From IMG/VR virus record IMGVR_UViG_3300037486_000490, positions 28,501-92,500 of that record: a stretch of DNA of 64,000 nt; one strand, written 5' to 3'. Source of the DNA: a virus. A program made the position numbers and the translations under genes. The notes under the pieces were generated by a model. The model saw nothing but the letters and a program-made list of their open reading frames with translations, was not told where the DNA came from and made no database searches. Positions 1 through 29,441 of this stretch are shown here, piece by piece. Every line of letters starts with the position of its first letter. Position 1 is the stretch's first letter.

Positions 1-415
1 CGGCTACCATACTCAGCGAAAGTCCTTTTACATCGAGTACCGATGCTGAAAGAGCAACACCTGCATAAGGTTGTTCGACGGTTGCCACACTTATCATAGC
101 TGCAAATGAGTAATCATTATAAGGTTTGTCACTCACAAGCTTGTAATGGGAATAGCTTAAGCCGAATCCTGCGCGTGATACGAACGTGCTTTCAAACTGC
201 AAGAACTCACCAAGCTCATTATAAGACGACTTCACCACTTGAGCCATTATCAGCATCTCAGGACGGAACAGGAACGAGCTTACTGCATCTTTGGATCCGC
301 TTACACTCTGGATACGTTCAACCGTTACCGGTTCAAGAAATCCTTTAAAGAGACCCTGGGCGTTAGCCATTGTCATAGACAACAGCAGAACTGCGAGAAA
401 TAGAAGTTTTTTCAT
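1..415 (-). CDS. Signal-peptide protein, probable outer-membrane beta-barrel (3' end runs off the window)
   Basis: Not in the ORF track. Manual translation from ATG 415: MKKLLFLAVLLLSMTMANA|QGLFKG...SRAGFGLSYSHYKL...YSFAAMISV...YAGVALSASVLDVKGLSLSMVA, open to position 1. Alternating hydrophobic strands. Confidence 0.6.
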   Translation of the reverse strand, partial: MKKLLFLAVLLLSMTMANAQGLFKGFLEPVTVERIQSVSGSKDAVSSFLFRPEMLIMAQVVKSSYNELGEFLQFESTFVSRAGFGLSYSHYKLVSDKPYNDYSFAAMISVATVEQPYAGVALSASVLDVKGLSLSMVA

Positions 416-416
416 G

Positions 417-776
417 TTACTTTCCTTTATTAATTATTTGTTTTTCACGGTACATCCTGGTGTTAATCTCCTTGGATTTAACTACATCGACTTTCTTGAA
501 CAGGAACTTCATTACCGTATTCACAAGCCAGGCTACCATAGATCCTTCTTTGATCTTGCCTGTCTGACCGAGCCATGTCTCAATAGGTATGAGAATTACC
601 AGAGCAACCATTGCCCAGTTGGCTTTCACAAGTCCCAGGAGAAACTGGAACATATCATTGAATGTCATGCCTTGATGCACAACCGTGCTGTCCACTGGTG
701 TGGAATCAACAACCTGTCCCGATACGACCATAGCCGTAATCAGGAGTACTGTCATAAGTAAAATACTCTTTTTCAT
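417..776 (-). CDS. Membrane protein with N-terminal signal peptide (holin-like or envelope protein)
   Basis: MKKSILLMTVLLITAMVVSG|Q, then hydrophobic segment WAMVALVILIPIETWLG and a basic C-terminus. Confidence 0.55.
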   Translation of the reverse strand: MKKSILLMTVLLITAMVVSGQVVDSTPVDSTVVHQGMTFNDMFQFLLGLVKANWAMVALVILIPIETWLGQTGKIKEGSMVAWLVNTVMKFLFKKVDVVKSKEINTRMYREKQIINKGK

Positions 777-973
777 GTTTAATTATTATTTAAGTGATTC
801 AAATACAATACTCTACAAAAATGTAGCTGCCAAAAGCTATGCAACCCAGAAGTCCAAGTTCTATGACTCTCATTGCAATGACGATTAATACTACTGCTGT
901 TCTCATGGATATTACTTTTTAGCAAGTTAATTCCATGAATATTCAACCGACACCAGACTGCCGGAAAGGGTTA

Positions 974-1009
974 TTATATCTATAACCCTTTTACAAGGAA
1001 AGGTTTATA
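974..1009. repeat. 36-bp palindromic element, copy 1 (direct repeat of 9246-9281)
   Basis: TTATATCTATAACCCTTTTACAAGGAAAGGTTTATA; 34/36 identical to copy 2; intergenic. Confidence 0.9.
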
Positions 1010-1017
1010 AGATGCGT

Positions 1018-1320
1018 TTAGGGAAGAGGCGGAAAAGTATTCGGTACCCAGGGCATCAGTTCTGCAACAAGTTGAACGAATATCCATCCGAGTATGCCTG
1101 CTGCGTTCCATGCCATATCCCAGGCACTGATAAATTCTTTATCATGATATTTATCCCATAATTCTTTACCCACAGCAACCAGCCCTGCAATTCCCATTGC
1201 AAGCAACCTGGGAATAAGTGTCTGCCAATATTCATTTCCGCCTATAGAAGGCGAGAGAAAATTGTACGTTACATCTGTTATGAAGTAACATGCCAGAAAA
1301 TGTAAGAGTGCTTCTATCAT
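1018..1320 (-). CDS. Small multi-TM membrane protein
   Basis: Hydrophobic segments with a GKELWD...ISAWDMAWNAAG motif seen in small phage/Bacteroidota membrane proteins. Confidence 0.6.
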   Translation of the reverse strand: MIEALLHFLACYFITDVTYNFLSPSIGGNEYWQTLIPRLLAMGIAGLVAVGKELWDKYHDKEFISAWDMAWNAAGILGWIFVQLVAELMPWVPNTFPPLP

Positions 1321-1330
1321 CTTTTATTAT

Positions 1331-2422
1331 TTAATTACCATCCCATCCAGCAATTCTTGCAAGCATCCACCACATAGCTTTACCAAGTCTTAATTCTCCA
1401 GCAGCAGAAATATGCCCTTCTATTTCTGGATCATTATTTGTATTTGTTATAGAAGGATAAGTATGTCCATCCCATGTTGTAGTAGTGGGTGTCCCGTTGT
1501 CATCATAACATAAAATATCAGCATAATCAAAAAGTATTACACTCTCTTGAGAATCAACCCAATCTCTAAGGTGTTCATACTTGAGATAAGCCTGGTACAT
1601 ATTTTCAGCGTTGAGATTTCCATTATAATTATCTACTGGTCCTGTTGTGAAAAATACTTTTGTAGGAATACTATTGGTAGTACAATAATCAACATATTCT
1701 TGTGTGACACTTATATATGTATCCATACTCACACCATTGCCTGTAATTGAAAAATCAGAAGCATCTAATCCCCATGCTCTGTCACCATTTGGACCACTAA
1801 CAGAAGAACCCCACCAATGAACTCCATAAATAGGATCAGCAGTTTCAGTAGCACCAGTTCCCATTGGATCCCAACACCATCCAAATCCAATAGCTGAAAC
1901 AGTCAGATTGTTTGCATAACAATAAGAGATACTTGCTTTTGTTCTTGTAATAGCAGTAGCATTGGTCCACCAATCTTCTTCACCATGCCAATATATCCAA
2001 CCTGTAGTATTATCATAATCGCCCCATCTTGCCCCACTTGCTCTTAGATGAGAAGTAGTATATGCTTCTGGGTTTGGATCTGTACCTACCCAGGGAATTC
2101 CATCAGTAACATTAACTGCAAACTTAGCATCCAATGCCTGTAATAAAATTAATCCATATCTTACTCCATAAGAATGCGATTCTCCTGCATTTACCATCCA
2201 CATTTTTTTTACCTCATTAATGTACACCTGTGGAATATCGTTATATAAATTTACTACAGTATGATCAGCTATTATCTTAGGAGACGTTGATTGTTGTTCA
2301 ACTGTATAATTAATAGGAGTAAATCCGCCATTATTAATAGGAATTCCATTATGGACTAACAGTGATTGTGCAGATATACCGAAGCTAACTAATAATAATA
2401 TTATTGTAATATTTTTCTTCAT
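1331..2422 (-). CDS. Secreted protein, possible SGNH-like alpha/beta hydrolase
   Basis: Signal peptide ...SFGISA|Q; GESHS near N-terminus, LFDYADI and GHISAAGELRLGKAMWWMLARIAGW at C-terminus. Confidence 0.5.
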   Translation of the reverse strand: MKKNITIILLLVSFGISAQSLLVHNGIPINNGGFTPINYTVEQQSTSPKIIADHTVVNLYNDIPQVYINEVKKMWMVNAGESHSYGVRYGLILLQALDAKFAVNVTDGIPWVGTDPNPEAYTTSHLRASGARWGDYDNTTGWIYWHGEEDWWTNATAITRTKASISYCYANNLTVSAIGFGWCWDPMGTGATETADPIYGVHWWGSSVSGPNGDRAWGLDASDFSITGNGVSMDTYISVTQEYVDYCTTNSIPTKVFFTTGPVDNYNGNLNAENMYQAYLKYEHLRDWVDSQESVILFDYADILCYDDNGTPTTTTWDGHTYPSITNTNNDPEIEGHISAAGELRLGKAMWWMLARIAGWDGN

Positions 2423-2424
2423 AG

Positions 2425-3960
2425 CTATTTTACTGGTATTCCTTGATATATTATAAGTTTACTTCCGTTTACTATTGGCAATACTATATTACTATCCCCA
2501 CTTTCATACCATCCAAGATCAGGAGCAGAGCCATTATAAATAATCCCAAGACTTGACATATTATCATCAGTTACACCTCCATCAATCAAATCTGATGTTG
2601 GATCAAGTTTTCCAAAATCAACATCAGGCAATGAACCATCTGTCTTTCTTGATGCTAAAAGTTCATTAACATCCAAACTTATAAAATCATCAGCTGTAAC
2701 AGTAAATGAAGGATTGTCTTGCCAAAAAGGACTGCTACCATAACTTTGGAAAGTATTATGGTCCAGCGTAAAAACCCAACTCATATTATCTTGAGCCCAA
2801 GGAATATTAAACCAAGGGTAATCAGAATCAAGATAAGATATATTATTTCTATAAATACACCATGAAGCTGCAAGTGGACTTTCAGTACAATTCTGTACAA
2901 GATATCCTATTTTATTATTATATGATATGTTATTATATGTCCAAGCTCTCGTCCATTCATCTCCTAAAGCATTATTAGGATCATAACTAAATCCCATATT
3001 ATTAGCAGATATATTATTATGTGTAATTCTTGAAATATAATCTGGTGTATGAGGAGGAGGATCACCTATCTTAAATCCATTACCCTCTGATGCTGATAAT
3101 GTTGGATCGCCATTATTAAATGCCCAACAGTTACGCATTACTGTAAGACATAATTGATCTAAATTAATACCATCATCAGCATTACCCCATGCTCTACATC
3201 CTTCTAATAATCCATAATTTGTAGTAAAATCATCATACTGTTGTAGAAAAAATCCATCTGCTCCATTACCAGCTTGTCTTAACCATGTCACACCAAGGTC
3301 AAGTGTATAGGTACTAAGACTATCAGCATTATCATAAGCATCACAATTTATCCACATACTTGTATCTACTATTGATAAATTATAATTGAATATGTTAAAT
3401 CCAGCACCACCATTATGATGTGAATGACATCTATCAAAGATTAAATTTGTGCAATCACTACTTGTCCATCCAGGAGTTTTATGACCATATTCTCCATAAT
3501 TTACCAAGTCTATACTTCTTTGGTCTTGTCTTACATTACATATAGTTAATCCAACAAACTTGACATAATTACAATTAGAAAATTCTAATCCATTATTATA
3601 TCCTTGAGGTGATGCAACTTGATATCTGCAATCAAGAACAGCGGAATCTCCTACAGCAAGTTCTGGCGGATACAGTGAAATAACCAATGGAGCTGCACGT
3701 GAAGATGTCATACCATCTAAATAAACATACGCTGATCTTGTGGTTTCATTTGCTGGTGTATATCTTCCTGCTCTAATATATAACGTATCACCAGCTGATA
3801 ACATTTCTACCCCATGCTTCCATGTTGCCCATGGTGTTGAAATACTTTGTGCTTGAGTTGTAGTTCTACTATCATTACCATTTGTTGCAACATAGTACGT
3901 AGTAGCTGATACATTTAATGATATTAAAATCAATAATAATATAATAAATCTTTTTATCAT
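2425..3960 (-). CDS. Secreted right-handed parallel beta-helix protein (pectate-lyase PL9-like depolymerase)
   Basis: Signal peptide; TTYYVATNGNDS...PWAT...AGDTLYIRAG; CRAWGNADDGINL, GNGFKIG; C-terminal SDLIDGG...GSAPDLGWYE. Confidence 0.8.
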   Translation of the reverse strand: MIKRFIILLLILISLNVSATTYYVATNGNDSRTTTQAQSISTPWATWKHGVEMLSAGDTLYIRAGRYTPANETTRSAYVYLDGMTSSRAAPLVISLYPPELAVGDSAVLDCRYQVASPQGYNNGLEFSNCNYVKFVGLTICNVRQDQRSIDLVNYGEYGHKTPGWTSSDCTNLIFDRCHSHHNGGAGFNIFNYNLSIVDTSMWINCDAYDNADSLSTYTLDLGVTWLRQAGNGADGFFLQQYDDFTTNYGLLEGCRAWGNADDGINLDQLCLTVMRNCWAFNNGDPTLSASEGNGFKIGDPPPHTPDYISRITHNNISANNMGFSYDPNNALGDEWTRAWTYNNISYNNKIGYLVQNCTESPLAASWCIYRNNISYLDSDYPWFNIPWAQDNMSWVFTLDHNTFQSYGSSPFWQDNPSFTVTADDFISLDVNELLASRKTDGSLPDVDFGKLDPTSDLIDGGVTDDNMSSLGIIYNGSAPDLGWYESGDSNIVLPIVNGSKLIIYQGIPVK

Positions 3961-4844
3961 GGGATTATTCCTTTACTATTTGAATCCATATATGCTTCAA
4001 AATTATCTACAATAGCATCTCTCATTGCAGTAGTGATATGTTCAGCAACAAAAGCAAGTGATACTTGTGCTACTGAATAAAATTCCCTTGTATAATTTTT
4101 TCTTGCCAATATGTTAAATTCCATTGTAGGTAGTCCAACGCTATTGGCTGTGGCAGGATCAGAAGTACTGGTTGTTTTATTTTTATATAAGATCACAGCA
4201 CTTGAACTTGTTCTTGTTGTTATCCATAATGCAGCGTGTGCATTACTTGTAGTTTCAGTATAACTTACTGTAACATCATTAAGAGAAAAAACAATCTCCC
4301 CAGACGAATAAGGTTGCAAACAAGTATTTTGAACGCCATCAGATACACCAAGATAACATCCTTCATTTGCTGGGTTTGCAGCCGTTCTGGAGTAGACGCC
4401 TATTGCTCCACTATTCTGAGTAAAATTAACTCCATCAGTGGATGGTACAAAATCAGTGCTAATATATTGAGATGTTCCATTACCAGTAAATCCTTCAAGT
4501 GTAGTAAATGATGCACTATAGTTTGTACAATCATGATCTCTCTCAACTGCATTTCTTAAAGATGACTCTGATGTCTCATTTGCAAGAATATACATTGCAT
4601 CAAATACATCAGATAGATTAGTAATACCTAAGTCACTTTTAAGATCGGTAAAGAATGTATTTAACTTATCGAGTTGTCCACTACTTAATTCAGTAGTAAG
4701 ACCATTAATATACGTTTCAAGATCAGAGTCATATCCTCCCCCTTGCTCTGTAGCAACAGGAACATGAAACGGATGTCTTGCAATCTGCCCCTGGACTGGC
4801 AGAAGTAGTAAAACAAGTAGCCATATTGAAAATAGTCTTCTCAT
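3957..4844 (-). CDS. Secreted protein with lectin/LamG-like fibre-tip domain
   Basis: Signal peptide ...LPVQG|Q; GFTGNGTSQYISTDFVPS resembles concanavalin-like phage fibre-tip domains. Confidence 0.55.
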   Translation of the reverse strand: MRRLFSIWLLVLLLLPVQGQIARHPFHVPVATEQGGGYDSDLETYINGLTTELSSGQLDKLNTFFTDLKSDLGITNLSDVFDAMYILANETSESSLRNAVERDHDCTNYSASFTTLEGFTGNGTSQYISTDFVPSTDGVNFTQNSGAIGVYSRTAANPANEGCYLGVSDGVQNTCLQPYSSGEIVFSLNDVTVSYTETTSNAHAALWITTRTSSSAVILYKNKTTSTSDPATANSVGLPTMEFNILARKNYTREFYSVAQVSLAFVAEHITTAMRDAIVDNFEAYMDSNSKGIIP

Positions 4845-6967
4845 TACCAGTTCCTTATTTTATAACCAGACATTGTTAAACTTAGCAAACTTGGTTTATT
4901 GCCAGCCGATACTGCTGAAATAGTACACCATACCCAGACATTAGGTGGTATTTCATTATTTGTAAAACTCGTATCTTCATCGCCAGTAGTAATACTGGTT
5001 ATAGTATAAGCCGCAGAATTGAGGTTTGTGGCAGAACCACTCTTAAATGTACCATGCCAACTGATCTGAACCCCGACTGTTTCTGTTCCAGACCCTTCAG
5101 CTAAAACTCCCCTTATAGAAGTGATATGAAGTGTATCAGCGCCAGCATTATAAAATGCTCCTGAGATAGCATTATTATTAAATACTACTGTATCTGCCGA
5201 TATTCCAGAGCCAAGTCCAAATATGAATATTGGAATGGTATCTATATTAAGTCTGGCATTAAGTGTAATTAAATCTTCAACATCCTCTTCTGTTACTGTT
5301 CCCGTTCCTCCATAGGTTCTTGCGTAAGATTGTGTAGCTAATGTATCTGTTGTACTAACTTTTTGAACTCCAGTGAAAGTTGGATTTGCAAGTGGAGCAT
5401 AAGTTGACGAAACCTCAGAACTAAGTATATAGTGAGTTAACATTGAGGTAGTATCAGATACGTTTACTTTGTTAGTTAAGCCGGTTGTTAGATCATAATT
5501 TGAAGCATAATGCCCTGGACCAGCCGTGCTATCGGCAAGCATAACTGCAATATCAGATATTTCTAATCCTGCTCCTATCCTTGCATCAAGACTATCATTA
5601 ATATTTTGTGTGGTGGAAAGAGTCCCGGATGTTGGCAGAGTTACAGTTGTAGATGCTATGGTTGTAAAGGTTAGTGCATCAGCACCCGAAAGCGTTAATG
5701 ATCCACTGGCAGGGGTGAAACCCGTCACTGTTGCAGCAGTCTCACTATCCAATAAATAATTACCCAACATAGAAGCCGTATCTGCCACCTCTATATAAAG
5801 AGGTCGTAAAACATTCAGACTATCAGCAATTTCATCCCTGACATCTCCTATTGTTACTGTACCAATACCGCCATAAGATCTTGCATAAGACTGGGTAGCA
5901 AGTGTATCAGTTGTACTATATTTAGGAAGAACACCCGTGAAAGTCGGAGATGTAAACATTGTTGCCTTACTTTCGTTGGTAACATTTCCTAAACTTACAT
6001 CAGACGATGTCAATGAGAGAGCAGTCTTGAAGTTTGCTGCACTTAAAGCATCTACGGTGTTATTTGCATTTACACGAAGAAAGGTTATTGCCGATGGATT
6101 TGTGAGAGTTAACAGGTTTGAACCAACTGTTGACTGAGCAACAAACCCCATGTTTCCATACTCGTCAATATTCAATAAATTCGTGGTTCCAGCAGAAGGT
6201 AGTGCAGCTATCGGAAGTCGATAACTCCGATTTGCAGTTGGAGCTCCTCCTTGTAGTGCTGTCCAAAATCCATTACTTCCATAAAAATAAAGTAGGCTTC
6301 CTCCATCAGATGTACCATCAAAATAAGGCGCAGCAGTACCATTACCCACAAGACCAGCTCTATCCCATACTGTTGAGTTATTGGTTATTGTAGTTCCCCA
6401 TGATGATCCGCTTGTTACAATAGGTATTCCTGAACCACTTGGATAAACCATTGAAGCTCCTTCTCCAACTTCCGTTAACAAAGCATACGTACTAAGCATT
6501 GTGGCTGTATCTGCTACGGCTACATATAAAGGTCGAAATACATTAAGACTGTCAGCAATCTCATCACGAACATCTCCAATAGCCACCCCTCCTGATCCAC
6601 CAACAAGTCTTGCATAAGCTCTTGTAGCAATAGTATCAGTTCCTATCCCCACAAGTTTGTTAAGCTCTGTATATGTGACCAGGGCTCCATCAAGGACATT
6701 TAATTCCTGACCGTTTGATGTTATCGTCACCGCATTGACCCTCCATGTAACAGGAAGTGATACCGTACCAGTGAATGTAGGTGATGCCAAAGGAGCTTTA
6801 GCTGTTTGTAAAATAGTTATTGAATCACTCGCTATCTCATCGTTAGCATTAATTATAGTTCTTGCCGTAGTCCATGTTCCTCCTGCGGGAATTGTGGTAA
6901 TAGTCTGTGCCATCAAACCTACTGAGAGTAAGACTACACCGAATATTATAAGTAATATTTTTTTCAT
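4844..6967 (-). CDS. Tail/head-fibre-like repeat protein carrying a signal peptide
   Basis: MKKILLIIFGVVLLSVGLMA|Q; fibre-shaft motifs APLASPTFTG, DVSLGNVTNESKATMFTSPTFTG, APLANPTFTG; internal duplications IGDVRDEIADSLNV x2 and TTDTLATQSYAR x2. Confidence 0.7.
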   Translation of the reverse strand: MKKILLIIFGVVLLSVGLMAQTITTIPAGGTWTTARTIINANDEIASDSITILQTAKAPLASPTFTGTVSLPVTWRVNAVTITSNGQELNVLDGALVTYTELNKLVGIGTDTIATRAYARLVGGSGGVAIGDVRDEIADSLNVFRPLYVAVADTATMLSTYALLTEVGEGASMVYPSGSGIPIVTSGSSWGTTITNNSTVWDRAGLVGNGTAAPYFDGTSDGGSLLYFYGSNGFWTALQGGAPTANRSYRLPIAALPSAGTTNLLNIDEYGNMGFVAQSTVGSNLLTLTNPSAITFLRVNANNTVDALSAANFKTALSLTSSDVSLGNVTNESKATMFTSPTFTGVLPKYSTTDTLATQSYARSYGGIGTVTIGDVRDEIADSLNVLRPLYIEVADTASMLGNYLLDSETAATVTGFTPASGSLTLSGADALTFTTIASTTVTLPTSGTLSTTQNINDSLDARIGAGLEISDIAVMLADSTAGPGHYASNYDLTTGLTNKVNVSDTTSMLTHYILSSEVSSTYAPLANPTFTGVQKVSTTDTLATQSYARTYGGTGTVTEEDVEDLITLNARLNIDTIPIFIFGLGSGISADTVVFNNNAISGAFYNAGADTLHITSIRGVLAEGSGTETVGVQISWHGTFKSGSATNLNSAAYTITSITTGDEDTSFTNNEIPPNVWVWCTISAVSAGNKPSLLSLTMSGYKIRNW

Positions 6968-7027
6968 CGTATTATTTCTTTATTATCGTTATTCGTATAG
7001 TGTGTTTTATATTACCTAATTTCACAA

Positions 7028-8182
7028 CTACCCATATACATTAGACCAATCATTATTATAAGCACACAATGCACCACTACTTAATGCTGCCCATGCTGCA
7101 GTATTTGTAACTTCAGGTATGGCATCTCCATTGCGATACTTAGTTTCACATAAATTATCTGCCAACCACTCCTGTGTACCTATACAAATAGTTCTATATA
7201 TTCTTCCATCATTCCCCACATATACTCCATATTGACCATGTGCTAGAGTAGTGCTATTTTTTACAAACCTAATTGGTAATCCACTTTTTAGTGTATGATA
7301 TTGTGAATCTTCTATAACAAAATCCTCAAATATTACATTAATTGCTGCATGATAAGGATGAGTAGTATTTATGAGTGTTGCTGACCAATAATCGTATTCT
7401 ATCTGGAAGGCATCAAATACCCCTTCCTTTGTCCTGTAACCAGCTCCAATAGCGTTAAACCCAAGTTCATTTGTTCCTTCATTAGTAGTCCAATAATCAA
7501 GTCCCATAGTCCTTAATTTAAAACATCCATTAGGGTTTATATAGTCTCTCTTAATTACTATATCATTATATGTTGGCACATGCCATCCATTAGATGCAAT
7601 ATTTCTTGCATCATTTACAACATACCAATTATAGAAAAGTCCATACAAAGGAGGATCAGTTTCAACAAACGTCCTATTATCCTTCATGTACCCGGACTCC
7701 ATCATTGTTTCACCCCAATATTGAACCCATAACTTAAAGAACTTATTTAAAACTACTTTATCTGATTCTGTGAGAACTTCACCGGTTTTAAGAATACCTA
7801 TTGCCGATACATCATAAGGTTCGAAATCGGCATATTTGATAAATGTCCTGGTTGTAGTACTAATAATAAGGTTGGCATGTGTCTTCTGCTGAAGCACTCC
7901 GGCACCATTGAACCACCAGTCATCTGTACCATCTGCTGCCAGATAGGTTGCATTATCAGGTACAGCAAAGGTTGCCTCAGTATCAGGAGGGATATATTTT
8001 GTACTCCAGTTCTTTCCTGTAACAGTTATGACAGAAGAATCAAGATCAGAAAGCAAATCATCCCCGTCATACTTGCCGGTCCATAGGAATAGGAACTTGG
8101 CTTTTAATGCCGCAGGCAAGCCATGACTCCTGTTATAGTTGGGAGTGACCAGATTGCAACGACCTAATCCATTAAATCCCAT
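7028..8182 (-). CDS. Fibre protein with circularly permuted Fib_succ_major (FISUMP) domain
   Basis: YGLFYNW...GWHVPT...TNELGF...GLPIRFVKN precedes DGRIYRTICIGTQEWLADNL...KYRNGD...CAYNND. Confidence 0.75.
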   Translation of the reverse strand: MGFNGLGRCNLVTPNYNRSHGLPAALKAKFLFLWTGKYDGDDLLSDLDSSVITVTGKNWSTKYIPPDTEATFAVPDNATYLAADGTDDWWFNGAGVLQQKTHANLIISTTTRTFIKYADFEPYDVSAIGILKTGEVLTESDKVVLNKFFKLWVQYWGETMMESGYMKDNRTFVETDPPLYGLFYNWYVVNDARNIASNGWHVPTYNDIVIKRDYINPNGCFKLRTMGLDYWTTNEGTNELGFNAIGAGYRTKEGVFDAFQIEYDYWSATLINTTHPYHAAINVIFEDFVIEDSQYHTLKSGLPIRFVKNSTTLAHGQYGVYVGNDGRIYRTICIGTQEWLADNLCETKYRNGDAIPEVTNTAAWAALSSGALCAYNNDWSNVYG

Positions 8183-8190
8183 AACTTTAG

Positions 8191-8502
8191 TTAAACTTCA
8201 AACACATTGAATACCGTACAAATATTTGCAATACCACCAAGTACCGCAACTTTATCTCCAATAACTACAGGAAGCCAAAGCTCCCCACCGGATGGTATAA
8301 AAATAGATGTAGCAAGTGCAGTAGGATTAACTCCTGTAAGCACACGGATATCTGCATCTGTTGCCACAATACGCACAAGGTTTCCTGCAATTGCAGCACT
8401 CTGAACAGATGCAGCTGTACCATTTACATCCTGTGATGCTGTAAGTCCCATTACGGGAATTGGATTACCATTGGCATCCATCAACATAACTGCCTTCGAC
8501 AT
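8191..8502 (-). CDS. Small beta-sandwich virion protein (head-spike base-like)
   Basis: VRIVATDADIRVLTGVNPTA...IFIPSGGELWL...GDKVAV resembles small spike-base jelly-roll proteins; no signal peptide. Confidence 0.45.
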   Translation of the reverse strand: MSKAVMLMDANGNPIPVMGLTASQDVNGTAASVQSAAIAGNLVRIVATDADIRVLTGVNPTALATSIFIPSGGELWLPVVIGDKVAVLGGIANICTVFNVFEV

Positions 8503-8522
8503 TGTAATTTATTTTAGTATTG

Positions 8523-9161
8523 TTAATAGGTAATGTAGGTGATGTAAACTCTCCACTCACCGTTGGTTGTGGTAGCCCAGTTTTGATCCGGATCAAATGA
8601 CAACCATACTTTTGTAGCAGCAGTGTAACTCATTACAACAGCCACTGGAAGGGCAGGGTTTATAACTCCTACCACCTCGTTCTGAGTATCACATGATGCA
8701 GCTACAATAAATTGTGCGCCTGCGGAAGCATTGCCGGCTGCTATGGTAATATCGGAAGCTCCAGCAGAGTTGACAAAGTCGTTTGAAGCAACGATCTGAA
8801 TGTCAAGAACTTTTGATCTTGCAGGTATAATTGCTCCCAAATCCAGGTTATATGCAGTATGATTGGCAGCTGCAACAGGAAGGTAAAAGTCATACCCTAC
8901 GGCATACCCTAAAAGTGCAATACCTTTCTGGATGGTATATATTCCAGCCATACTAACCCCATTCACTTCCGGAGTAACCGTAAGCAGATCAGGAGCTGCA
9001 AGTTGGGAATATACAGACTGAAAATTTTGATTGGTAACCCTCATAGCAGTACCAAGCCCATCACCGCCTGAGCCATTACGACCTTTACCGGGATTAAGAA
9101 GTACCTGACCATATCCTGAGAGTGAGAGGATGCAGAACAATAAAACAAGAAGTTTTTTCAT
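8523..9161 (-). CDS. Signal-peptide protein with fibre-anchor-like N-terminus and jelly-roll-like C-terminus
   Basis: MKKLLVLLFCILSLSGYG|QVLLNPGKGRNGSGGDGLGTAMRVTNQNF resembles the IELINVGLAADDGTGDLLRDAFIHVNN start of fibre 10692-12752. Confidence 0.6.
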   Translation of the reverse strand: MKKLLVLLFCILSLSGYGQVLLNPGKGRNGSGGDGLGTAMRVTNQNFQSVYSQLAAPDLLTVTPEVNGVSMAGIYTIQKGIALLGYAVGYDFYLPVAAANHTAYNLDLGAIIPARSKVLDIQIVASNDFVNSAGASDITIAAGNASAGAQFIVAASCDTQNEVVGVINPALPVAVVMSYTAATKVWLSFDPDQNWATTTNGEWRVYITYITY

Positions 9162-9245: not shown

Positions 9246-9281
9246 TTATATCTATAACCCTTTTACCAGAAAAGGTTTATA
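9246..9281. repeat. 36-bp palindromic element, copy 2
   Basis: TTATATCTATAACCCTTTTACCAGAAAAGGTTTATA; arms TATAACCCTTTT/AAAAGGTTTATA with a 5-nt spacer. Confidence 0.9.
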
Positions 9282-10691: not shown

Positions 10692-12752
10692 CTACGGTGT
10701 TCCGAATGCTGCTATATCATTAGCAGCTGTTAATAATCCTGCGGAGCTTAAGCTTGCAATAATGGTAGTTCCATACTTAAATACAAGTTTTCCGCTTTCT
10801 TGCATTATGGTAAAGTTTGTCATATTAAGTTCAGCATGCGTATGTGCCAGTAAACTATACCTTAAATCTCCACGCGCATCTGTATGATATATTGTATGAT
10901 CGTCATCGAGCAATCCTGTCAATGAACCATGGTCAGTAAGTATCGGAGCAGTGCCTGATAACTGTGGATTGCCCCTGAGATCCTGAGCCTCAGCGTATGT
11001 TCCACTTGAAGAGGTAGCATCGACTATTACCTTGTATAATACCTTGAACTCCGGAGAGGGCAATGTTCCAAAAGACAATCCCGAGTATGTTGCTGCCCTT
11101 GCTGCAGCTAATGTGCCATATGCAGCCTGACCCATAAGTGAAATAATAGGTGACACCGTATCATTGGTTGCTACCAGGTAATACACCCCATATTCATTCG
11201 ATGCAAGCTCTGCCAGCGTTCCGGCATTATCATACTGGGGTCTTCCACCAGTTCCTGCTTTCCACCAACTATTTTGAAGTGAAGTCCATAACCAATTGAG
11301 ACTTACATCCCTGTAAACAACTGATACCTGGTATGGATTTGCTCCCGTAATGCTGTAAAAAAGATCCTCATCCGCATACTGTCCACCTAAAAGGTTAATG
11401 GATGTGTCAGCAAAAGCTGCTGTAAGCCCTGAGATATATGCTGTACCCCTTGTAAGATGCAGATAAGCATGCGTAGAAGAAGTCATGTTAGTCCCGTGAC
11501 GCTCGTCATATAACCGGTAATTCGCACCGTTCTTGTAAACAATGCATATAGGAACTGCGGTAAATATGCTCCAGGATACTTGCAGTCTTGTTAGTACTCC
11601 CGAACTATTATAGTACACATACCATATTCCATTAGCAGATGCAGAAAAATCTAACGTCTGCGTTGTCTTGGCATATGCTGTTCCCTTATACCATGCAGTA
11701 TGTACCCCTGTAATATTCAATACTCCTGCAACAACAGACAATGTAGGAGTGGGATACAATCCCGTAGGCTCCTCTATAGCATCAACAGGGTTATTTGTTA
11801 TATTATCCCAGTGAACCTGAGCAGATCCTGAGGTCTGTACCTCTGTTTTGGTGTATACGCTTGTTGCAGCTGCATAACCGGCGGATGCATGGTTGCCCCA
11901 TCCATAAGCGGTATTCCAGTTAGCTGAGTTATTTGTTATTGATGTTCCCCATCCAAGTCCTGTAGAAAGTCCAATCCCTGCCCCGGGATATACCATACTC
12001 ACAGAACCACCTCCAGCCGGTTGCCAGGTACCGTCCTCACGAAGAAACAACGTAGCGCCGGTACCGAGTATAATACCACCCATAACAGTCGGCGTGGCAA
12101 CAGGCATGCTTTCCCAGATAGTAGGAGGAAGCCATCCGGTAGAAGACCATGCCTGGATTTCATAATCACCGGCAAAAGACTTCTTGCATCTCAAATATTC
12201 ATTCGGGAGACCGGAATTCATAATCTCAAACCAGTCACTGACATCTGTTCCACCAGAAGTAGCAGGTATCCATGACCTGACGCCTGCCGTAGTAGAACTT
12301 AAGACATATCCACTCACAGCGGGGTTGCCAAGAACAGGCTCATATACTCCGGCATGCGTATGTGCAACAGGAGAATAGACTCCCGTATGAGTATGCGCCA
12401 GCAGAGAATAACGTGCATCCCCGCGTGTCTGGTTATAATATATCGTATGATCGTCCACCCCAAGATCAAGCAGATCTCCATGGGATACGATAGCACTATC
12501 GGTATCTATCACCAACTCCCAGTTGACAGCCTGGTATGCCCCGGTAGAGTCCGCGGTACAAACGTATAGTTTACCAGTAGTGAGGTAAAGGTCGTTAATG
12601 AAGTAAGGATGAGTGGGTTCTGAGTAAAATACCTGTGCCCTGGAATTCTGCAGGTCTACCAGGCTATTATTTACATGAATGAATGCATCACGGAGCAGAT
12701 CCCCTGTACCGTCATCAGCTGCAAGTCCAACATTTATAAGTTCTATAGCCAT
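10692..12752 (-). CDS. Tail fibre protein
   Basis: N-terminal INVG..DDGTGD.LRDAF anchor; HTH (His-x-His) motifs; repeated HGxLxxLxxDDHTIY..RGD.RYSLLAHTH; C-terminal DIAAF. Confidence 0.8.
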   Translation of the reverse strand: MAIELINVGLAADDGTGDLLRDAFIHVNNSLVDLQNSRAQVFYSEPTHPYFINDLYLTTGKLYVCTADSTGAYQAVNWELVIDTDSAIVSHGDLLDLGVDDHTIYYNQTRGDARYSLLAHTHTGVYSPVAHTHAGVYEPVLGNPAVSGYVLSSTTAGVRSWIPATSGGTDVSDWFEIMNSGLPNEYLRCKKSFAGDYEIQAWSSTGWLPPTIWESMPVATPTVMGGIILGTGATLFLREDGTWQPAGGGSVSMVYPGAGIGLSTGLGWGTSITNNSANWNTAYGWGNHASAGYAAATSVYTKTEVQTSGSAQVHWDNITNNPVDAIEEPTGLYPTPTLSVVAGVLNITGVHTAWYKGTAYAKTTQTLDFSASANGIWYVYYNSSGVLTRLQVSWSIFTAVPICIVYKNGANYRLYDERHGTNMTSSTHAYLHLTRGTAYISGLTAAFADTSINLLGGQYADEDLFYSITGANPYQVSVVYRDVSLNWLWTSLQNSWWKAGTGGRPQYDNAGTLAELASNEYGVYYLVATNDTVSPIISLMGQAAYGTLAAARAATYSGLSFGTLPSPEFKVLYKVIVDATSSSGTYAEAQDLRGNPQLSGTAPILTDHGSLTGLLDDDHTIYHTDARGDLRYSLLAHTHAELNMTNFTIMQESGKLVFKYGTTIIASLSSAGLLTAANDIAAFGTP

Positions 12753-13036
12753 CAGATCTGTATTGCATCAGAAGATATAAAAGTCATGTCTGCTGTTAGA
12801 GGAATGGTAACAGGTATTGTTGATCCCGGGGTGGTAAGACTGCTTGCGTCATAGTCCACTTCATAGACAAAACGAAGCAGATATTCCTCAAGCACATCCT
12901 GAAAGATATTCTCATGCTCAATACCCAAAGCCATAGCGGTTGCCATAAGCTGGCATTTATGACTTATTGAACTATCGAGGGCAACGATAAAATCGGTGAC
13001 ACTTGGATAGTCAAGGTAATTGAGCGAGAATGGCAT
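12752..13036 (-). CDS. Small virion protein (fibre-docking candidate)
   Basis: C-terminal TADMTFISSD motif; translationally coupled to the fibre gene. Confidence 0.45.
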   Translation of the reverse strand: MPFSLNYLDYPSVTDFIVALDSSISHKCQLMATAMALGIEHENIFQDVLEEYLLRFVYEVDYDASSLTTPGSTIPVTIPLTADMTFISSDAIQI

Positions 13037-13740
13037 TAGTGTCCGGGTTTAAAAATATAAATACCAGTATCAACAATGGACTTAAGCGCTATGGCTTTCT
13101 CGTTTGCATTCGAGAAATACCCGTAGTCAAAGTCATATCTTATACCATATTGGATAATCATAAGCTTAAGAACGCTGTCCTTAAGGATATCAACATCCTG
13201 TTTATAAGCAGTCTCATCTGCCTTCAATTCAAGATAGGCAGTTATCGATGTGGATAAATACTCATCAGATACCTTTGTAGTAAGTAACCTACAGGTATAG
13301 TTCACCGCTACGGCTCCCGGATTGGTATCCCCGTTAGTTACAATCTTGTAAACGCCGTCTGGGAACGTGACATAATCAAACGCCAGGGCAACACCATCGG
13401 CATCCGTATATGTGAACTTGGCTGCGTTTGCCGCCAGTTTGATATCATCCACCGACAGGTGCAGAAATTTGTCTGCAATATCCGTGTCATATCCCCACTT
13501 TACCATGTCTACCAATAGATTGGTAGCATAATATGCTGTAAGTTTTGTTGCTATTTCATCTATTCTTATATAGTACGGATCGATAAAGAACGTACTCTTA
13601 ATGGTAAGAATGGACAGATCCGGAAATGTAATTACAAAAGCATCGGGATCGGCTGTAAAATCAGTATACACCCCGGTTGATAGTATCTGAAGCACCAGGG
13701 CTTCGCCTTTACGTATTACAGTTTTTGCTATTACAGCCAT
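13036..13740 (-). CDS. Putative virion structural protein
   Basis: Position in the late operon; overlapping stop/start with the next gene. Confidence 0.45.
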   Translation of the reverse strand: MAVIAKTVIRKGEALVLQILSTGVYTDFTADPDAFVITFPDLSILTIKSTFFIDPYYIRIDEIATKLTAYYATNLLVDMVKWGYDTDIADKFLHLSVDDIKLAANAAKFTYTDADGVALAFDYVTFPDGVYKIVTNGDTNPGAVAVNYTCRLLTTKVSDEYLSTSITAYLELKADETAYKQDVDILKDSVLKLMIIQYGIRYDFDYGYFSNANEKAIALKSIVDTGIYIFKPGH

Positions 13741-13753
13741 GGCATAATAAGAT

Positions 13754-13784
13754 AAAAGAAAGGGGAGGTGAATTCTCCCCTTTC
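13754..13784 (-). terminator. Intrinsic terminator
   Basis: GAAAGGGGAG-GTGAATT-CTCCCCTTTC hairpin with a T-run on the minus strand. Confidence 0.75.
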
Positions 13785-13794
13785 AAGTGACTAA

Positions 13795-14709
13795 TTAAAT
13801 ACCCAGGTTAGTGGGGAAAGCGGCTTTCAGAAGATCGCCGAAAGAGTTTGTTGCACCGGCAGTCTCAACGATGTACAGTTTCAGCGGGTTATTAGCCTGC
13901 ATCTTGCTACCGTCAACGGGACTAAATGGATTAGCAATCTCAAGAATGTACTGGTCGAAGGTGGTCTGCGAAGGCTGCATTTTTGAAGGAGCAGTCTTGG
14001 GGAAGAGAACCTTGTTGTACACACCATACTGATAAGAATTGCACTCCTGTTCCAGAGCAGTGATCTTAGCGAGAGTTCCGGTTGACGGAATCATCTTGGT
14101 TGTAAGAACGGTTGTAAAGACAGATGCAAGATCATCAGTTGCAGTTGCAAGAGTATAATCCTTACTGAGTGTAAGTATCAGGGTAGTTGTACCTGTAGCA
14201 ACAACAAAACTGAAATCTTCGTCAGCATTGATCAGAGTCCTGAATGCATCCATGACCGTGGTGGTCGTGAAATCAGTACCAACATGAACAACCTGGAACG
14301 TCTTGCGAAGCATCGGCTGTGTACCGGTTGTAAGATCGATCAGTTTGATCGAATAGACATCACCTGTGTACTGAGTGGCAGGAAGGACTGGGGTGATCGT
14401 GGTAACCTGTGCGGTACCTGCGCTGTACGGTACGTAAGAGTACTTGGTGATCTGTGAAAGACTGAATGCCGGTGAGCAATAGAAGTTCAGATCAGTGGAT
14501 GATCTCCTTGTAACAAGTTTGAACTTAAGTGCTTCAAGGGAAGGATCAGTAGCGCCACCTACACCGATATACCCAGTCAAGTCAGTTGTAAAACCGTCAG
14601 TTGAGATCATGGAAGAAGTTGCAGGGACTATGCCCCACTCTGCTGCAGCAAGAGTGCTAAGAGCGCCCGCTGTGCCCCTGGTTATGCCAGGAAAATAACA
14701 TTGTTTCAT
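13795..14709 (-). CDS. Virion structural protein (auxiliary capsid protein candidate)
   Basis: Thr-rich beta protein followed by a terminator; position as in crAss-like head modules. Confidence 0.55.
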   Translation of the reverse strand: MKQCYFPGITRGTAGALSTLAAAEWGIVPATSSMISTDGFTTDLTGYIGVGGATDPSLEALKFKLVTRRSSTDLNFYCSPAFSLSQITKYSYVPYSAGTAQVTTITPVLPATQYTGDVYSIKLIDLTTGTQPMLRKTFQVVHVGTDFTTTTVMDAFRTLINADEDFSFVVATGTTTLILTLSKDYTLATATDDLASVFTTVLTTKMIPSTGTLAKITALEQECNSYQYGVYNKVLFPKTAPSKMQPSQTTFDQYILEIANPFSPVDGSKMQANNPLKLYIVETAGATNSFGDLLKAAFPTNLGI

Positions 14710-22382: not shown

Positions 22383-24428
22383 TTAGAAGAAGCTTCTGTC
22401 CCAGAATGATCCTTCGGATGTCTCCTGGGCTTCGATCACCTGTTTTTTATACAAATCCTTCATATGGTACATTCCCACTATCATAGCGGAAACCCTGTCG
22501 AAGTTTCCTTCGCCGTAACGTATCAGTTCGTCCAGCAGCTGTAGGTCGTAGATATAATGCAGGTTCAACTTGTCCTTGCCATCATCGCCCTTTCCGCGGT
22601 GCATTATCAACCAGTCCCTGAGATAAATCTGTCCCTGACCCTTGCGCTCCTTGTTTGAGATGCTCATGCCGTAGGTACGTCCGAGCTTGCGAATGTTGAT
22701 GTTTTCCCGCTTGTCTATTATCTCCACCTCTTCCAGCAGCCAGCGCAGCTTATGCGTGCGCTTGGCATACTCCACCACGTTACCACGGTCATTTTCAAAT
22801 CCTATGCGTGCGTTGTAATACTCAGCCAGCATAAAGAGTACTTCGTTGTACTCGTCCTGCGACCCGGGTCTACCCACCCATGAGGCGACTATCATATCGT
22901 CAGGCTTGGATAGGGGGTTAATACGCTTTAAGACATACGCTGCACCGAGGGAGTTGCCACCGGAATCATCCTGTGCATAAGGGTCGCAGCATATAATGTA
23001 CATGTTATCGGGGATAACTCCGTCTGAGGAATAGAAGGGAGCCTGGTACACGGTCACGCATCCATGGATATTGTCTCCCTTTTCATGGGGGAACTTGGCT
23101 ACGGGACGAGCACTGTCCGAAGGTTTAAAGATCGTCTTGGCTTCAACACTCGTAGTAAGGAATCCGTTGACAGCCACGTTCTTATACAGCCCATGGGTAA
23201 AAATGTGGTTACGCCATTCAGAGATTGCCACCGTGGGGAATATATTCCCCGTTGTCCGAAGAAATGCTTCCCGAGGGGAGAAGGGACGTTCGGTAACATA
23301 CTTGTCAAGGATCGCCGGTGACTTGGCGGTAGTGCGTATATTCTCACGTTTTGCTTCTTCATATTCGCGCGCTGTCTGCCTATTGGAGTTTCCGTTGGAG
23401 TCTATGAACCCCTTTTTGTTTTGGTAATCAGGAAAGAAGAACCCGCAGTAAGTGCCGCGCGCATCATCGTCCCATATGTTCTCAACCGGGTAAAGGTTGT
23501 AAGGCTCGGGGTTATAGAACATCGACTCGAAGTCAATGGTACCACCTTCCATGTCACCACCAGTACCGTACAGCAGTATCTGACCGGTGATCAGCGCCCC
23601 ATCTTCTACAGCTGACTGGGTCGCCAGGTAAGAAGCCTTAAGGTTGTTGAATTTACCGCACTCCTCAAATAGGATGAGAGATGCATCCTTACCACGGGCG
23701 GCGTCCGGGTTATCAGCGAATGTGGTAGCGATTATCTGCGACCGGTAGCCTTTTTCGACATAGATCCCATTTATTTGTTCCAGATATGATGCCTTCACAT
23801 GCTCCATACGGTTGGTCACACCCCGGCGCTTTGTCCAGGCGGTATGCTCGTTCATGAAGTTCAGGTTGTCCACGATCATGCTCATGGTACCGTTGGGATA
23901 GAGGTACTTCTTATCGAATGCACCCACGAGCGTTATGGAGTCCCTGATAGTGTTGTACTTATTGGCTGCCTTGTCCGCATTCTTATAGGAATATCCTTTT
24001 CTTCGTGCCTTGCCGCAGATGACATGGTGACCACCATCTATCCACAGGGGTTTCTGATCCAGCAGTAATGCCTTAAGCTTTTCAGGGTCAATGCCCTTTT
24101 CCGCTATCTCGATGTGCCAGTAGTACTCATAATCTCCGTCCCAGAAGTCCGGGAAAGTCACGGTCTTTGTCTTGTACCGGGTCTTGCGCTTGGTAACTCC
24201 CGGAATCTCATCCACATCTTCGGTGAGTTTGATCTGCCCGAAGTTCAGGTAATGGTAATGATCGCCTGTAATCTGTTTTCCACCCGAGCTGTATCCATTA
24301 ATACACCGGCGCAGCTGCTCGTTCCAATATTCCATGTAACCCATGGAACTTGGAGGATCGTCGCAGTATCGCCCGTATTTGAGGAAAGTCTTGGCTTCCT
24401 CACGGAACATCTCGGTGTTAACCCACAT
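22383..24428 (-). CDS. terL: Terminase large subunit
   Basis: ITGDHYHYLNF, Walker A KARRKGYSY, LILFEECG, GTGGD, nuclease CDPY, FENDRG, NFDRVSA. Confidence 0.92.
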   Translation of the reverse strand: MWVNTEMFREEAKTFLKYGRYCDDPPSSMGYMEYWNEQLRRCINGYSSGGKQITGDHYHYLNFGQIKLTEDVDEIPGVTKRKTRYKTKTVTFPDFWDGDYEYYWHIEIAEKGIDPEKLKALLLDQKPLWIDGGHHVICGKARRKGYSYKNADKAANKYNTIRDSITLVGAFDKKYLYPNGTMSMIVDNLNFMNEHTAWTKRRGVTNRMEHVKASYLEQINGIYVEKGYRSQIIATTFADNPDAARGKDASLILFEECGKFNNLKASYLATQSAVEDGALITGQILLYGTGGDMEGGTIDFESMFYNPEPYNLYPVENIWDDDARGTYCGFFFPDYQNKKGFIDSNGNSNRQTAREYEEAKRENIRTTAKSPAILDKYVTERPFSPREAFLRTTGNIFPTVAISEWRNHIFTHGLYKNVAVNGFLTTSVEAKTIFKPSDSARPVAKFPHEKGDNIHGCVTVYQAPFYSSDGVIPDNMYIICCDPYAQDDSGGNSLGAAYVLKRINPLSKPDDMIVASWVGRPGSQDEYNEVLFMLAEYYNARIGFENDRGNVVEYAKRTHKLRWLLEEVEIIDKRENINIRKLGRTYGMSISNKERKGQGQIYLRDWLIMHRGKGDDGKDKLNLHYIYDLQLLDELIRYGEGNFDRVSAMIVGMYHMKDLYKKQVIEAQETSEGSFWDRSFF

Positions 24429-25390: not shown

Positions 25391-25392
25391 AA

Positions 25393-25989
25393 TTAGTTTT
25401 CAAATGAATTAATATCACCACCGCCACGGATCTTGCGTCCGTTGCTCTGTTCCATTTTTACCTTTTCCTCAAGGTCCTCAAGCGTGCCTATTGCCTTTGG
25501 CAGCTTATCGGCAAGCACCAGGAGACTGGAAACAGACTGCACAATACTGTTAATCTCTTCTATATCGGATTCATCCTCACCTTCTGCAGGCGGAGTATTG
25601 AATGCAACCAGGCGATCCTCGATGCGCGAGCGCAGTGTTTCTATAACCTTGGTTGATGTCATCAGCGATTCGCGAATTGCGATAAGGGTACTGATGGAAG
25701 GGGTACGCTGTAGCTCGTCGTACTTGAGCTGAGCATCTATTACACCCTTGTCCGGTGTCCAGTCGGGGGACAGACCAAGCTCCCGCTTGACCCTCTGGAT
25801 GCGTTCGTCCTTGGGATAGATGATATACGGAGACTTGTAGTCAGTGACGAAGTAGATGAATGCAAGTTCCTGGAACGAGCGTTTCTTCTCCGGGGTCTTA
25901 TCTCTGCGAATAAGAGCAGCAAACTCCGGGATCACCTTGACCTCCGGAGCTATGACTATTTGGTGGTTTTCTTCTGAGAAGACTCCCAT
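25393..25989 (-). CDS. Conserved packaging-module protein (terminase small subunit candidate)
   Basis: ELAFIYF..DYKSPY, C-terminal IRGGG; near terL. Confidence 0.5.
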   Translation of the reverse strand: MGVFSEENHQIVIAPEVKVIPEFAALIRRDKTPEKKRSFQELAFIYFVTDYKSPYIIYPKDERIQRVKRELGLSPDWTPDKGVIDAQLKYDELQRTPSISTLIAIRESLMTSTKVIETLRSRIEDRLVAFNTPPAEGEDESDIEEINSIVQSVSSLLVLADKLPKAIGTLEDLEEKVKMEQSNGRKIRGGGDINSFEN

Positions 25990-26843: not shown

Positions 26844-26848
26844 AGTAA

Positions 26849-26915
26849 CAGAATAATATATCGTATATGCAACAAATATATTACTCAATGCAAATATAAT
26901 CAGAATAATGTTCTG
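26849..26915. promoter_or_regulatory. Late-operon promoter region with paired 15-bp operator-like boxes
   Basis: CAGAATAATATATCG (26849) and CAGAATAATGTTCTG (26901) flank two minus-strand TATATTTG elements (26873-26880, 26891-26898). Confidence 0.6.
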
Positions 26916-27233: not shown

Positions 27234-27252
27234 CCAATCTAAAATCTAAACC

Positions 27253-29403: not shown

Positions 29404-29441
29404 CCATTGTTGATAACTAACGCAATTTAAACAGAATAATA

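Follow-up and report, generated by a model that had tools for sequence, protein, structure and literature searches.

In the textbook account, tailed-phage virions are assembled entirely in the cytoplasm. It is against this background that a group of phage genes for fibre-like proteins headed by secretion signals raises a question: why would a phage export such proteins, and where would they end up? The genes lie at the start of a 64-kb stretch of viral DNA (the window), bases 28501-92500 of the 92.5-kb IMG/VR virus contig IMGVR_UViG_3300037486_000490 (CheckV completeness 66%), and continue to the left of it. The contig belongs to a crAss-like phage from sediment with a Bacteroidota host; it has PHROG matches to the crAss-type major head protein (3e-97), portal (9e-123) and large terminase (1e-137), and its major capsid protein (MCP) shows 33-34% identity to those of crAss002 and cr8_1, among others. 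The export of the signal-bearing proteins of this block is predicted with high confidence, and the host-recognition gear that they make up very probably matures outside the cytoplasm. Tentatively, and at slightly less than even confidence, we read the block as the variable host-recognition region of the phage, organized as a mobile, Sec-routed accessory module of receptor-binding proteins and depolymerases.

Export signals in the block and among its relatives

The block comprises 13 genes over 14.5 kb (contig 23151-37661, or window -5349 to 9161). The original prediction had placed it at the distal end of the late operon; however, the contig extends 28.5 kb to the left of the window, 5.3 kb of which belong to the signal-bearing block. 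In the contig segments on that side (L003 and L004; a further segment, L001, completes the first open reading frame (ORF) of the window), the block is followed by homologues of the ring (gp43-like, 246 aa), muzzle (gp44-like, 1279 aa) and cargo genes of crAss001 and by a giant virion RNA-polymerase-type ORF exceeding 3900 aa. The minus strand carries all of the late genes; these are open frames under table 11, stop-codon recoding not being evident. ARAGORN predicts a tRNA with anticodon TTA, which reads the UAA stop, at window 31421-31489 (+), overlapping the start of ORF 31435-32043. Within the block, genes overlap by 1-4 nt or are separated by gaps of at most 10 nt, and the Bacteroidota -7 promoter consensus TAnnTTTG is absent from both of its intergenic gaps. 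Strand, packing and absence of this consensus suggest that the block genes are made late, together with the virion genes.

Signal peptides were called in the full set of 97 contig ORFs with a rule-based test, which asks for a positive n-region, for a hydrophobic window that is nine residues or longer and free of acidic residues, and for small residues at -3 and -1. Thirteen ORFs passed it, nine of them among the 13 block genes versus four, all small early-region proteins, among the 84 genes elsewhere (Fisher p=3e-7). In the window, where the ORFs are found at the positions originally given, seven of the ten genes carry a signal of the signal peptidase I (SPI) type, and six of these expose Gln at position +1, exactly as had been claimed; over the whole block the count is 7/9, with Thr or Ala at +1 in the two beta-helix proteins. 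The preference of Bacteroidota SPI substrates for this residue, the Q-rule, is well established (PMC5837995, PMC10653852). The fibres and tailspikes of crAss001 (gp21-26), employed as a negative control, all fail the same test (0/6). The possibility that the true starts lie downstream of the hydrophobic segments is made unlikely by the tight gene packing, as such a start would strand about 60 untranslated nucleotides inside the operon. No block protein matches the C-terminal sorting domain of the type IX secretion system (T9SS; TIGR04183 / PF18962) at E values up to 0.1. Three small signal-bearing proteins of the early region, one of them with a lipobox (F-S-C), are encoded at window 34992-36291 (+); these could be morons of the exclusion or lipoprotein kind that have no connection with the block.

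The signals are also conserved among homologues, a point on which the original prediction depended. A search of 5.8 billion proteins with the 707-aa fibre recovered 443 homologues at E<=1e-5, and at least 96 of the best 120 carry an SPI or lipoprotein signal by a strict test; those that fail are mostly 5'-truncated or have an upstream alternative start before an evident signal. Two kinds of signal are found, namely SPI signals ending in A/G/S followed by Q, and lipoprotein signals with a lipobox such as L-S-G-C. In related loci (locus L005 and the phage G002), lipoprotein (signal peptidase II, SPII) fibres take the place in the cassette that the SPI fibre has here, a replacement that makes little sense if export itself is not under selection. 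Across more than 100 fibre homologues, substitutions within the signal are hydrophobic only, and an internal Met near the cleavage site is usually absent. In several of them the motif N-D-G-T-G-E-x-L-R-x-A-F-x-K-V-N directly follows the predicted cleavage site; the distance of this anchor motif from the mature N-terminus equals that in signal-less fibres, which suggests that the signal is an add-on ahead of a complete fibre. All beta-helix homologues seen, 13 or more in number, have a signal followed by an '(A/T)xYYV' start; six of them come from related loci and seven or more from the SGNH search. Among lectin homologues the picture is mixed, with a signal in about 9 of 24. Of 150 members of the SGNH-domain family, 77 meet the strict test, and others seem by eye to have TAT, lipoprotein or T9SS-like signals.

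The D-S/T-A/I/L/V/M/T motif is used by Bacteroidota for O-glycosylation only on non-cytoplasmic proteins (PMC12871550). In the 707-aa fibre, D[ST][AILVMT] is observed 14 times versus 4.3 expected (z 4.9), the motif being part of its shaft repeats. Among 119 fibre homologues the motif was counted 1614 times versus 442 expected (3.65-fold), with z>2 in 102 of the 119, while order-scrambled control motifs reached 474-764; because these homologues are related, the counts are not independent events, and the motif is a conserved part of the repeats. The signal-less fibre at 10692 stays at chance (3 observed, 3.1 expected), the rest of the genome is at or below chance, and no motif was found in the lectin, the SGNH protein, the barrel or the 212-aa protein, the enrichment being limited to fibres. 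The 3.65-fold excess points to O-glycosylation of the fibres in the periplasm.

Table 1. Features of the signal-bearing block and its surroundings. Positions are those of the window unless a contig segment (L) is named; a slash marks the predicted cleavage site; AF2, AlphaFold2.
Feature	Position	Strand	Length	Remarks
Probable small outer-membrane beta-barrel	2..415 (full gene L001:1427-1915)	-	162 aa (N-terminal 138 aa in window)	Signal ANA/Q
119-aa protein	417..776	-	119 aa	Signal VSG/Q; two D-S-T motifs; one internal transmembrane segment; basic C-terminus
36-bp direct repeat, left copy	974..1009		36 bp	94% identical to right copy; the copies bracket the 8.2-kb cassette (8523-9161 to 1018-1320)
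Small membrane protein	1018..1320	-	100 aa	About 3 hydrophobic segments; closes the cassette; sub-threshold DUF2279 (E 0.0014)
SGNH/GDSL-like protein	1331..2422	-	363 aa	Signal ISA/Q; AF2 pLDDT 88
PL9-like right-handed beta-helix	2425..3960	-	511 aa	Signal VSA/T; predicted polysaccharide lyase / depolymerase
ConA-like/LamG lectin-fold protein	3957..4844	-	295 aa	Signal VQG/Q; AF2 pLDDT 86.9
Fibre-like protein	4844..6967	-	707 aa	Signal LMA/Q; anchor-like N-terminal motif; shaft repeats; 14 O-glycosylation motifs
Signal-less protein	7028..8182	-	384 aa	N-domain of about 174 aa ('FLFLWTG') and FISUMP domain (PF09603, 5e-21)
Signal-less cassette partner	8191..8502	-	103 aa	No family match
Short fibre	8523..9161	-	212 aa	Signal GYG/Q; anchor-like motif; C-terminal knob of about 140 aa
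36-bp direct repeat, right copy	9246..9281		36 bp
Conventional tail fibre, backbone gene	10692..12752	-	686 aa	No signal; comparator
Double PL9 beta-helix	L003:14651-17413 (left of window)		920 aa	Signal-bearing; PF22842 3e-22, 79.5 bits
Fibre paralogue	L003:17416-19140 (left of window)		574 aa	Signal VFG/Q; 35% identity to 4844-6967, E 2e-45

Composition and distribution of the cassette

The 707-aa fibre is rich in internal repeats, including P-T-F-T-G (three times), TDTLATQSYAR (twice), IGDVRDEIADSLNV (twice) and DT[AT][ST]ML (three times). Of the two shaft repeats that had been proposed for it, SPTFTG and LGNVTN, the former is reflected in P-T-F-T-G and the latter is present once only. This fibre has a 53-aa module in common with the signal-less backbone fibre at 10692 (51% identity, E 6e-7), and PDB sequence searches with both fibres gave no match. 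The N-terminus of the backbone fibre shows 62% identity to that of the fibre of the closest relative, the phage G001.

Regarding the short fibre at 8523, a search of related loci with the 212-aa protein found nothing. Elsewhere its knob domain exists alone without a signal, and it terminates two longer fibres, one of 356 aa that has no signal and one of 271 aa that has one. The same anchor motif had been ascribed to this protein and to the backbone fibre at 10692. The direct BLAST comparison is not significant (E 0.11); the link survives transitively, through an 89-aa anchor-only protein of G002 that matches both (E 3e-6 and 5e-5). In G002, the stop of this signal-less 89-aa gene (L019:14288-14557) directly abuts the start of a signal-bearing fibre (13024-14331); the same pair occurs in locus L010, and the arrangement gives the impression of a signal placed between the anchor and the shaft. 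A weak PHROG match of the 212-aa protein to an Rz-like spanin (E 0.0017) falls on the knob; this candidate was rejected, the same domain being a fibre tip in homologues.

Between the 707-aa and 212-aa fibres lie two signal-less genes. The N-domain of the 384-aa protein has a gene of its own (173-176 aa; 61% identity in G002) immediately before that of the fibre in L005, in G002 and in a further locus, L025, and is fused to a lectin domain in the proteins P0143 and P0128; judged from these arrangements, this 174-aa domain is a probable virion-side adaptor. At the position of the 103-aa gene, before the adaptor gene, L005 and G002 have a 101-aa gene whose start is similar by eye in L005; the G002 counterpart gave no BLAST match.

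The predicted enzymes and the lectin are better defined by family and fold. The original description of 2425-3960 as a PL9-like beta-helix is confirmed by PF22842 (E 1.8e-11, 44 bits against a cutoff of 25.2) and by an NCBIfam PelN match (3.1e-29), a BT_4170-like C-terminal domain (4.7e-6) remaining below its cutoff. Equivalence to PelN itself does not hold, as the equivalog cutoff is 740 bits and the scores of this protein and the 920-aa protein are 102 and 209. By profile comparison, the beta-helix proteins are relatives of PL9 at the family level and are predicted to be lyases.

The lectin-like character of 3957-4844 is supported by the fold of its AF2 model, which matches in the PDB the lectin domain of trypanosomal sialidase (1.7e-9), the jelly-roll of the clostridial neurotoxin Hc fragment and a carbohydrate-binding module of GH43, and in BFVD many phage fibre-end and stand-alone LamG/ConA-like proteins (TM-score 0.72-0.76), making it a putative sugar binder. 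Its homologues occur with and without signal, some of them fused to siphovirus tail-tube proteins.

Likewise, the SGNH assignment of 1331-2422 draws support from the modelled fold. The top Foldseek matches in the PDB are all SGNH proteins (PatB, GDSL esterases, CE3 and the SGNH domain of OafA; E 4e-5 to 1e-2), with TM-scores of 0.5-0.55 by target and 0.31-0.37 by query, the latter owing to large insertions, and no Pfam match was obtained. Ser82 and His83 are invariant in the family within a G-E-S-H-S block, and His337 is conserved in at least 90% of the rows. The protein is a probable carbohydrate esterase on the basis of this model. Its family has 763 representatives, in which the domain is often fused behind the same PL9-type beta-helix, as in a 755-aa protein of locus L024, and T9SS-like, TAT and lipoprotein signals are seen among the relatives. 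Such fusions suggest that the adjacent genes 2425-3960 and 1331-2422 are functionally coupled. The C-termini of the two beta-helix proteins, like those of many relatives (P0156, P0168, P0176 and P0188), show by eye short 'N-G-(S)-K-hydrophobic' strands, which the mature N-terminus of 1331-2422 resembles; such segments might serve as tags for docking in a branched complex.

Together with some of their neighbours, these genes form an ordered cassette (a protein of about 101 aa, the adaptor, a fibre, a lectin and a beta-helix that are each signal-bearing, and sometimes a small membrane protein) that recurs, among the IMG/VR loci read for gene context, in L005, in L006/L008 and in G002, a complete phage of 99.9 kb whose MCP is only 24-26% identical. 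The closest relative G001 (92.2 kb, 100% complete; MCP 91%, backbone proteins 63-79%) lacks the cassette and has at its position a different, signal-less gene set; the sole signal-bearing protein of G001 is a homologue of 417-776 joined to the barrel. The expected co-occurrence of the genes in related phages is thus seen for the fibre, lectin and beta-helix in distant phages and fails in the nearest one, which makes the cassette accessory rather than core. In L025 the adaptor, lectin and fibre-end genes are all signal-less and in L024 a signal-less lectin stands among signal-bearing neighbours; all other cassettes are signal-bearing.

In addition, the cassette is bracketed by the two copies of the 36-bp direct repeat, present only in this genome among 26 loci and forming a weak hairpin (z -1.4), which could be a recombination scar of cassette insertion. 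The G+C content of the block is 33-41% versus 42-49% in the backbone. Judging from its recurrence in distant phages, its absence from G001, its lower G+C and the bracketing repeat, the block is an accessory, horizontally exchanged module in a hypervariable fibre region. A pattern scan of 185,579 species genomes found no chromosomal or prophage copy of the cassette, a second genome scan returned a 1.3-kb mis-binned fragment only, and tblastn against 50,697 GenBank phage records gave one 29-residue match for the fibre and none for the beta-helix. Among sequencing runs, none of RNA is listed as containing the stretch, which was found whole only in the probable source sample; the contigs of that sample break at the right copy of the repeat, and none bridges the cassette. 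In the probable source run, the word depth of the cassette contig (window 1856-9282) is 8.4 versus 12.7 and 14.8 in the flanks; part of the phage population may carry other content there.

A possible route to the virion and its alternatives

If the block is a Sec-routed receptor-binding module, its apparatus would consist of three fibres (707, 574 and 212 aa), a ConA-like lectin, two PL9-type lyases and an SGNH-like esterase, laid out as the cassette and a second, partial copy left of the window. These proteins would be made late alongside the virion genes and exported by Sec; cleavage by SPI would mostly expose Gln, which the host cyclase would convert into pyroglutamate, as the conserved signals and the Q-rule suggest. 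Folding and trimerization would take place in the periplasm, where the fibres would be O-glycosylated at D-S/T-hydrophobic motifs. In the least certain step, the breaching of the inner membrane at lysis would allow the exported proteins to meet the virions built in the cytoplasm. The fibres would then dock via the anchor-like motif at their mature N-terminus, probably onto signal-less adaptors, and the lectin and enzymes would be either carried on the fibres or released free. That exported proteins are loaded onto virions at lysis in this way is plausible, at just under an even chance.

Several observations argue for such loading. The fibre modules are of the virion type, as seen in the 53-aa module shared with the backbone fibre, the anchor motif, the fusion of lectins to tail-tube proteins and the presence of the knob on signal-less fibres. 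The cassette exists in an entirely signal-less version in L025, a signal-less adaptor gene is kept beside the fibre, and the block lies in the late operon without a promoter consensus in its gaps. A possible precedent is found in the Cellulophaga phage phi18:3 (NC_021794), where three consecutive genes, gp085-087, carry signals with +1 Gln (GYSQ/V, VSAQ/T and LNAQ/T) and are listed in the GenBank record as virion, structural or tail proteins from tandem mass spectrometry (MS/MS) proteomics; no paper was found discussing these signal peptides. On the other hand, phi18:3 is a 71-kb podovirus of the Pachyviridae and not crAss-like, its proteins have no detectable sequence similarity to the present ones, and their O-glycosylation motif is not enriched (1 observed versus about 3 expected in each).

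Other facts weigh against a virion destination. The lipoprotein variants of the fibre, in which Cys and a linker of about 30 aa precede the same motif, would stay tethered to the membrane, which fits an envelope role better. The phage has a conventional fibre of its own and its closest relative does without the cassette, so that the latter must be dispensable for making particles. In the L024 cassette the lectin has no signal and its neighbours do, the enzymes are reminiscent of secreted glycan-degrading proteins of bacteria, and the phi18:3 proteins, lacking both similarity and motif enrichment, could be co-purifying envelope material. The signal calls, moreover, rest on the rule-based test and not on SignalP.

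It has accordingly to be considered that the proteins are exported and never attached to virions, forming an envelope or extracellular kit for glycan clearing and binding. Such a kit could strip the capsule or extracellular polysaccharide of the infected cell and its neighbours, free the progeny, stop re-adsorption to debris, exclude superinfecting phages or expose receptors nearby. The lipoprotein-anchored fibres fit this explanation, as do the accessory nature of a cassette carried next to a conventional fibre and the combination of PL9, SGNH and lectin proteins typical of secreted bacterial polysaccharide degraders, whose SGNH relatives have T9SS-like, TAT or lipoprotein signals. We nevertheless consider it rather unlikely, since the fibres retain an anchor-type motif and shaft modules and adjoin a conserved signal-less adaptor gene, signal-bearing proteins do occur in the virion preparations of phi18:3, and a set of free enzymes would have no need of three trimeric fibres.

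A role in lysogenic conversion is improbable. In this scenario the phage, probably temperate, would express from the prophage an adhesin, a glycan-foraging or an exclusion structure comparable to the lom/bor-type morons of lambda, in agreement with the low G+C and horizontal mobility of the block and with the presence of an outer-membrane barrel gene inside the fibre region, as is the case for lom. However, the block is tightly packed on the same strand within the late structural operon without a promoter consensus in its gaps, its proteins have no T9SS C-terminal domain or surface-export signal, and the same cassette lies in the structural region of G002 (where no integrase search was made).

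Only a very slight chance is left to the idea that the hydrophobic N-termini are not working signals, reflecting instead wrong starts or assembly and anchor helices of ordinary cytoplasmic fibres and tailspikes: although every module is also known in signal-less virion proteins, the canonical n-h-c architecture with +1 Gln, its conservation in more than 100 homologues, the lipobox swaps, the tight packing, the enrichment of a glycosylation motif used only in the periplasm and the failure of the crAss001 fibres in the same test all speak against it. Equally improbable is the capture of host polysaccharide-utilization genes as auxiliary metabolic genes that would boost glycan foraging during infection, unrelated to host recognition; the PL9, SGNH and lectin domains do have mostly bacterial relatives, but SusC/SusD-type and regulator genes are lacking, the partners are fibres with phage-type anchor, shaft and knob, and the cassette recurs in phage structural regions and has no relative in the species genomes scanned by pattern.

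Extending the virion-loading reading, Bacteroidota tailed phages might possess a second, extracytoplasmic assembly line, in which Sec-exported, pyroglutamate-capped and host-O-glycosylated fibres and enzymes would be added at lysis to fibre-less particles, the cassette moving between unrelated phages. This generalization we regard as possible, although doubtful rather than probable.

Accessory genes, known systems and significance

Some genes of the block stand apart from the fibres. The ORF at the left edge of the window had been called a probable outer-membrane barrel, and probable is as far as the assignment goes: it has a signal and a C-terminal aromatic Phe (...TVTF), its nearest clusters in the ESM Atlas are viral proteins of 155-161 aa (0.96-0.97), and its nearest named families there all belong to the outer-membrane-barrel clan (PagL, DUF6646 and DUF2715; 0.87-0.88, TM-score 0.44-0.56, a lead only), yet no Pfam or NCBIfam profile matches it. 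In G001 (258 aa, L018:4579-5355) and in G002 (299 aa, L019:2930-3829), the part homologous to the 119-aa protein 417-776 forms one continuous frame with the barrel. These fused frames hold a second, internal signal-like segment ending in A-S-A-Q; in the present phage there are two genes, each with its own signal. A 107-aa look-alike of the small membrane protein 1018-1320 is found by eye at the same cassette position in G002.

Directly after the block, a 159-aa protein (L003:14060-14539, minus strand; 63% identity in G001) combines an N-terminal membrane segment with a coiled coil, and its gene occupies the place of crAss001 gp27, annotated as 'lysis regulatory protein'. This protein and the barrel could form a spanin-like pair in which an outer-membrane barrel replaces the lipoprotein. 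For the barrel and the 119-aa and 100-aa membrane proteins, an accessory function in lysis or in the envelope is likelier than a place in the fibres; the barrel, the 119-aa gene and the membrane/coiled-coil gene may belong to lysis, their position being like that of the lysis genes after the fibres in crAss001. Inside the exported block, just left of the window, a gene without signal encodes a caspase-like peptidase C14 (PF00656, 3.9e-22; L003:19137-19922, minus strand); in the unrelated locus L025, a homologue of this peptidase (29% identity) and one of the 162-aa barrel are three genes apart.

Comparison with known systems reveals partial parallels. In crAss001 the structural region has a similar layout, with successive genes for fibres, tailspikes, lectins and depolymerases (gp21-gp26) and lysis genes after them, but the products of gp21-gp26 are all signal-less, cytoplasmic virion parts. 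Lambda Lom is a small outer-membrane barrel, the product of a single gene that is encoded among tail and fibre genes and expressed from the prophage, and the fibre proteins PblA and PblB of Streptococcus mitis phage SM1, which have no signal peptides, get to the bacterial surface only by way of lysis and then act on it. Neither Lom nor PblA/PblB forms a multi-gene exported set of fibres and enzymes.

Closer to the present case in their signals are five proteins of Porphyromonas gingivalis prophages, of unknown function, which are predicted to be cut by SPI to a Q-rule Gln and were read by the authors as evidence of phages using the general secretion of the host (Matrishin et al. 2023, PMC10367356). 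Unlike the cassette, they belong to siphovirus-like prophages, were not identified as fibres, lectins, depolymerases or a virion-module cassette, and were thought to modify the host outer membrane (PMC10367356). In Bdellovibrio bacteriovorus, the MAT fibres are tail-fibre-like trimers in which a signal precedes a conserved anchoring domain at the N-terminus and the tips can be swapped (Caulton et al. 2024, PMC10769870). These are chromosomal and sit on the predator's own surface (PMC10769870), being neither phage-encoded nor from Bacteroidota nor part of a virion operon, and the likeness is one of description. In the literature, no description was found of a fibre, lectin or depolymerase with a signal peptide from a crAss-like or any other Bacteroidota phage. 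To call the exported appendage system undescribed is nevertheless too strong in view of the Q-rule prophage proteins (PMC10367356) and the phi18:3 proteins detected by MS/MS. The richness of this case lies in its nine signal-bearing proteins, its two cassettes and its exchange of modules with signal-less virion proteins.

A conserved and widespread set of signal-bearing fibres, lectins and depolymerases points either to a periplasmic maturation route for virion parts or to unrecognized phage-exported appendages that remodel the envelope, and phi18:3, as a cultured phage, could be used for a direct test of the idea. Should the periplasmic route be true, host-type glycans and pyroglutamate caps could affect the stability, the host range and the immune or lectin recognition of the particles, and, with a second assembly line, the virion would leave the cell with host-made sugars. 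Recombinant fibres produced in the cytoplasm of E. coli would be devoid of such modifications. Either outcome would alter the annotation, expression and engineering of the receptor-binding proteins of Bacteroidota phages, the crAss-like phages included.

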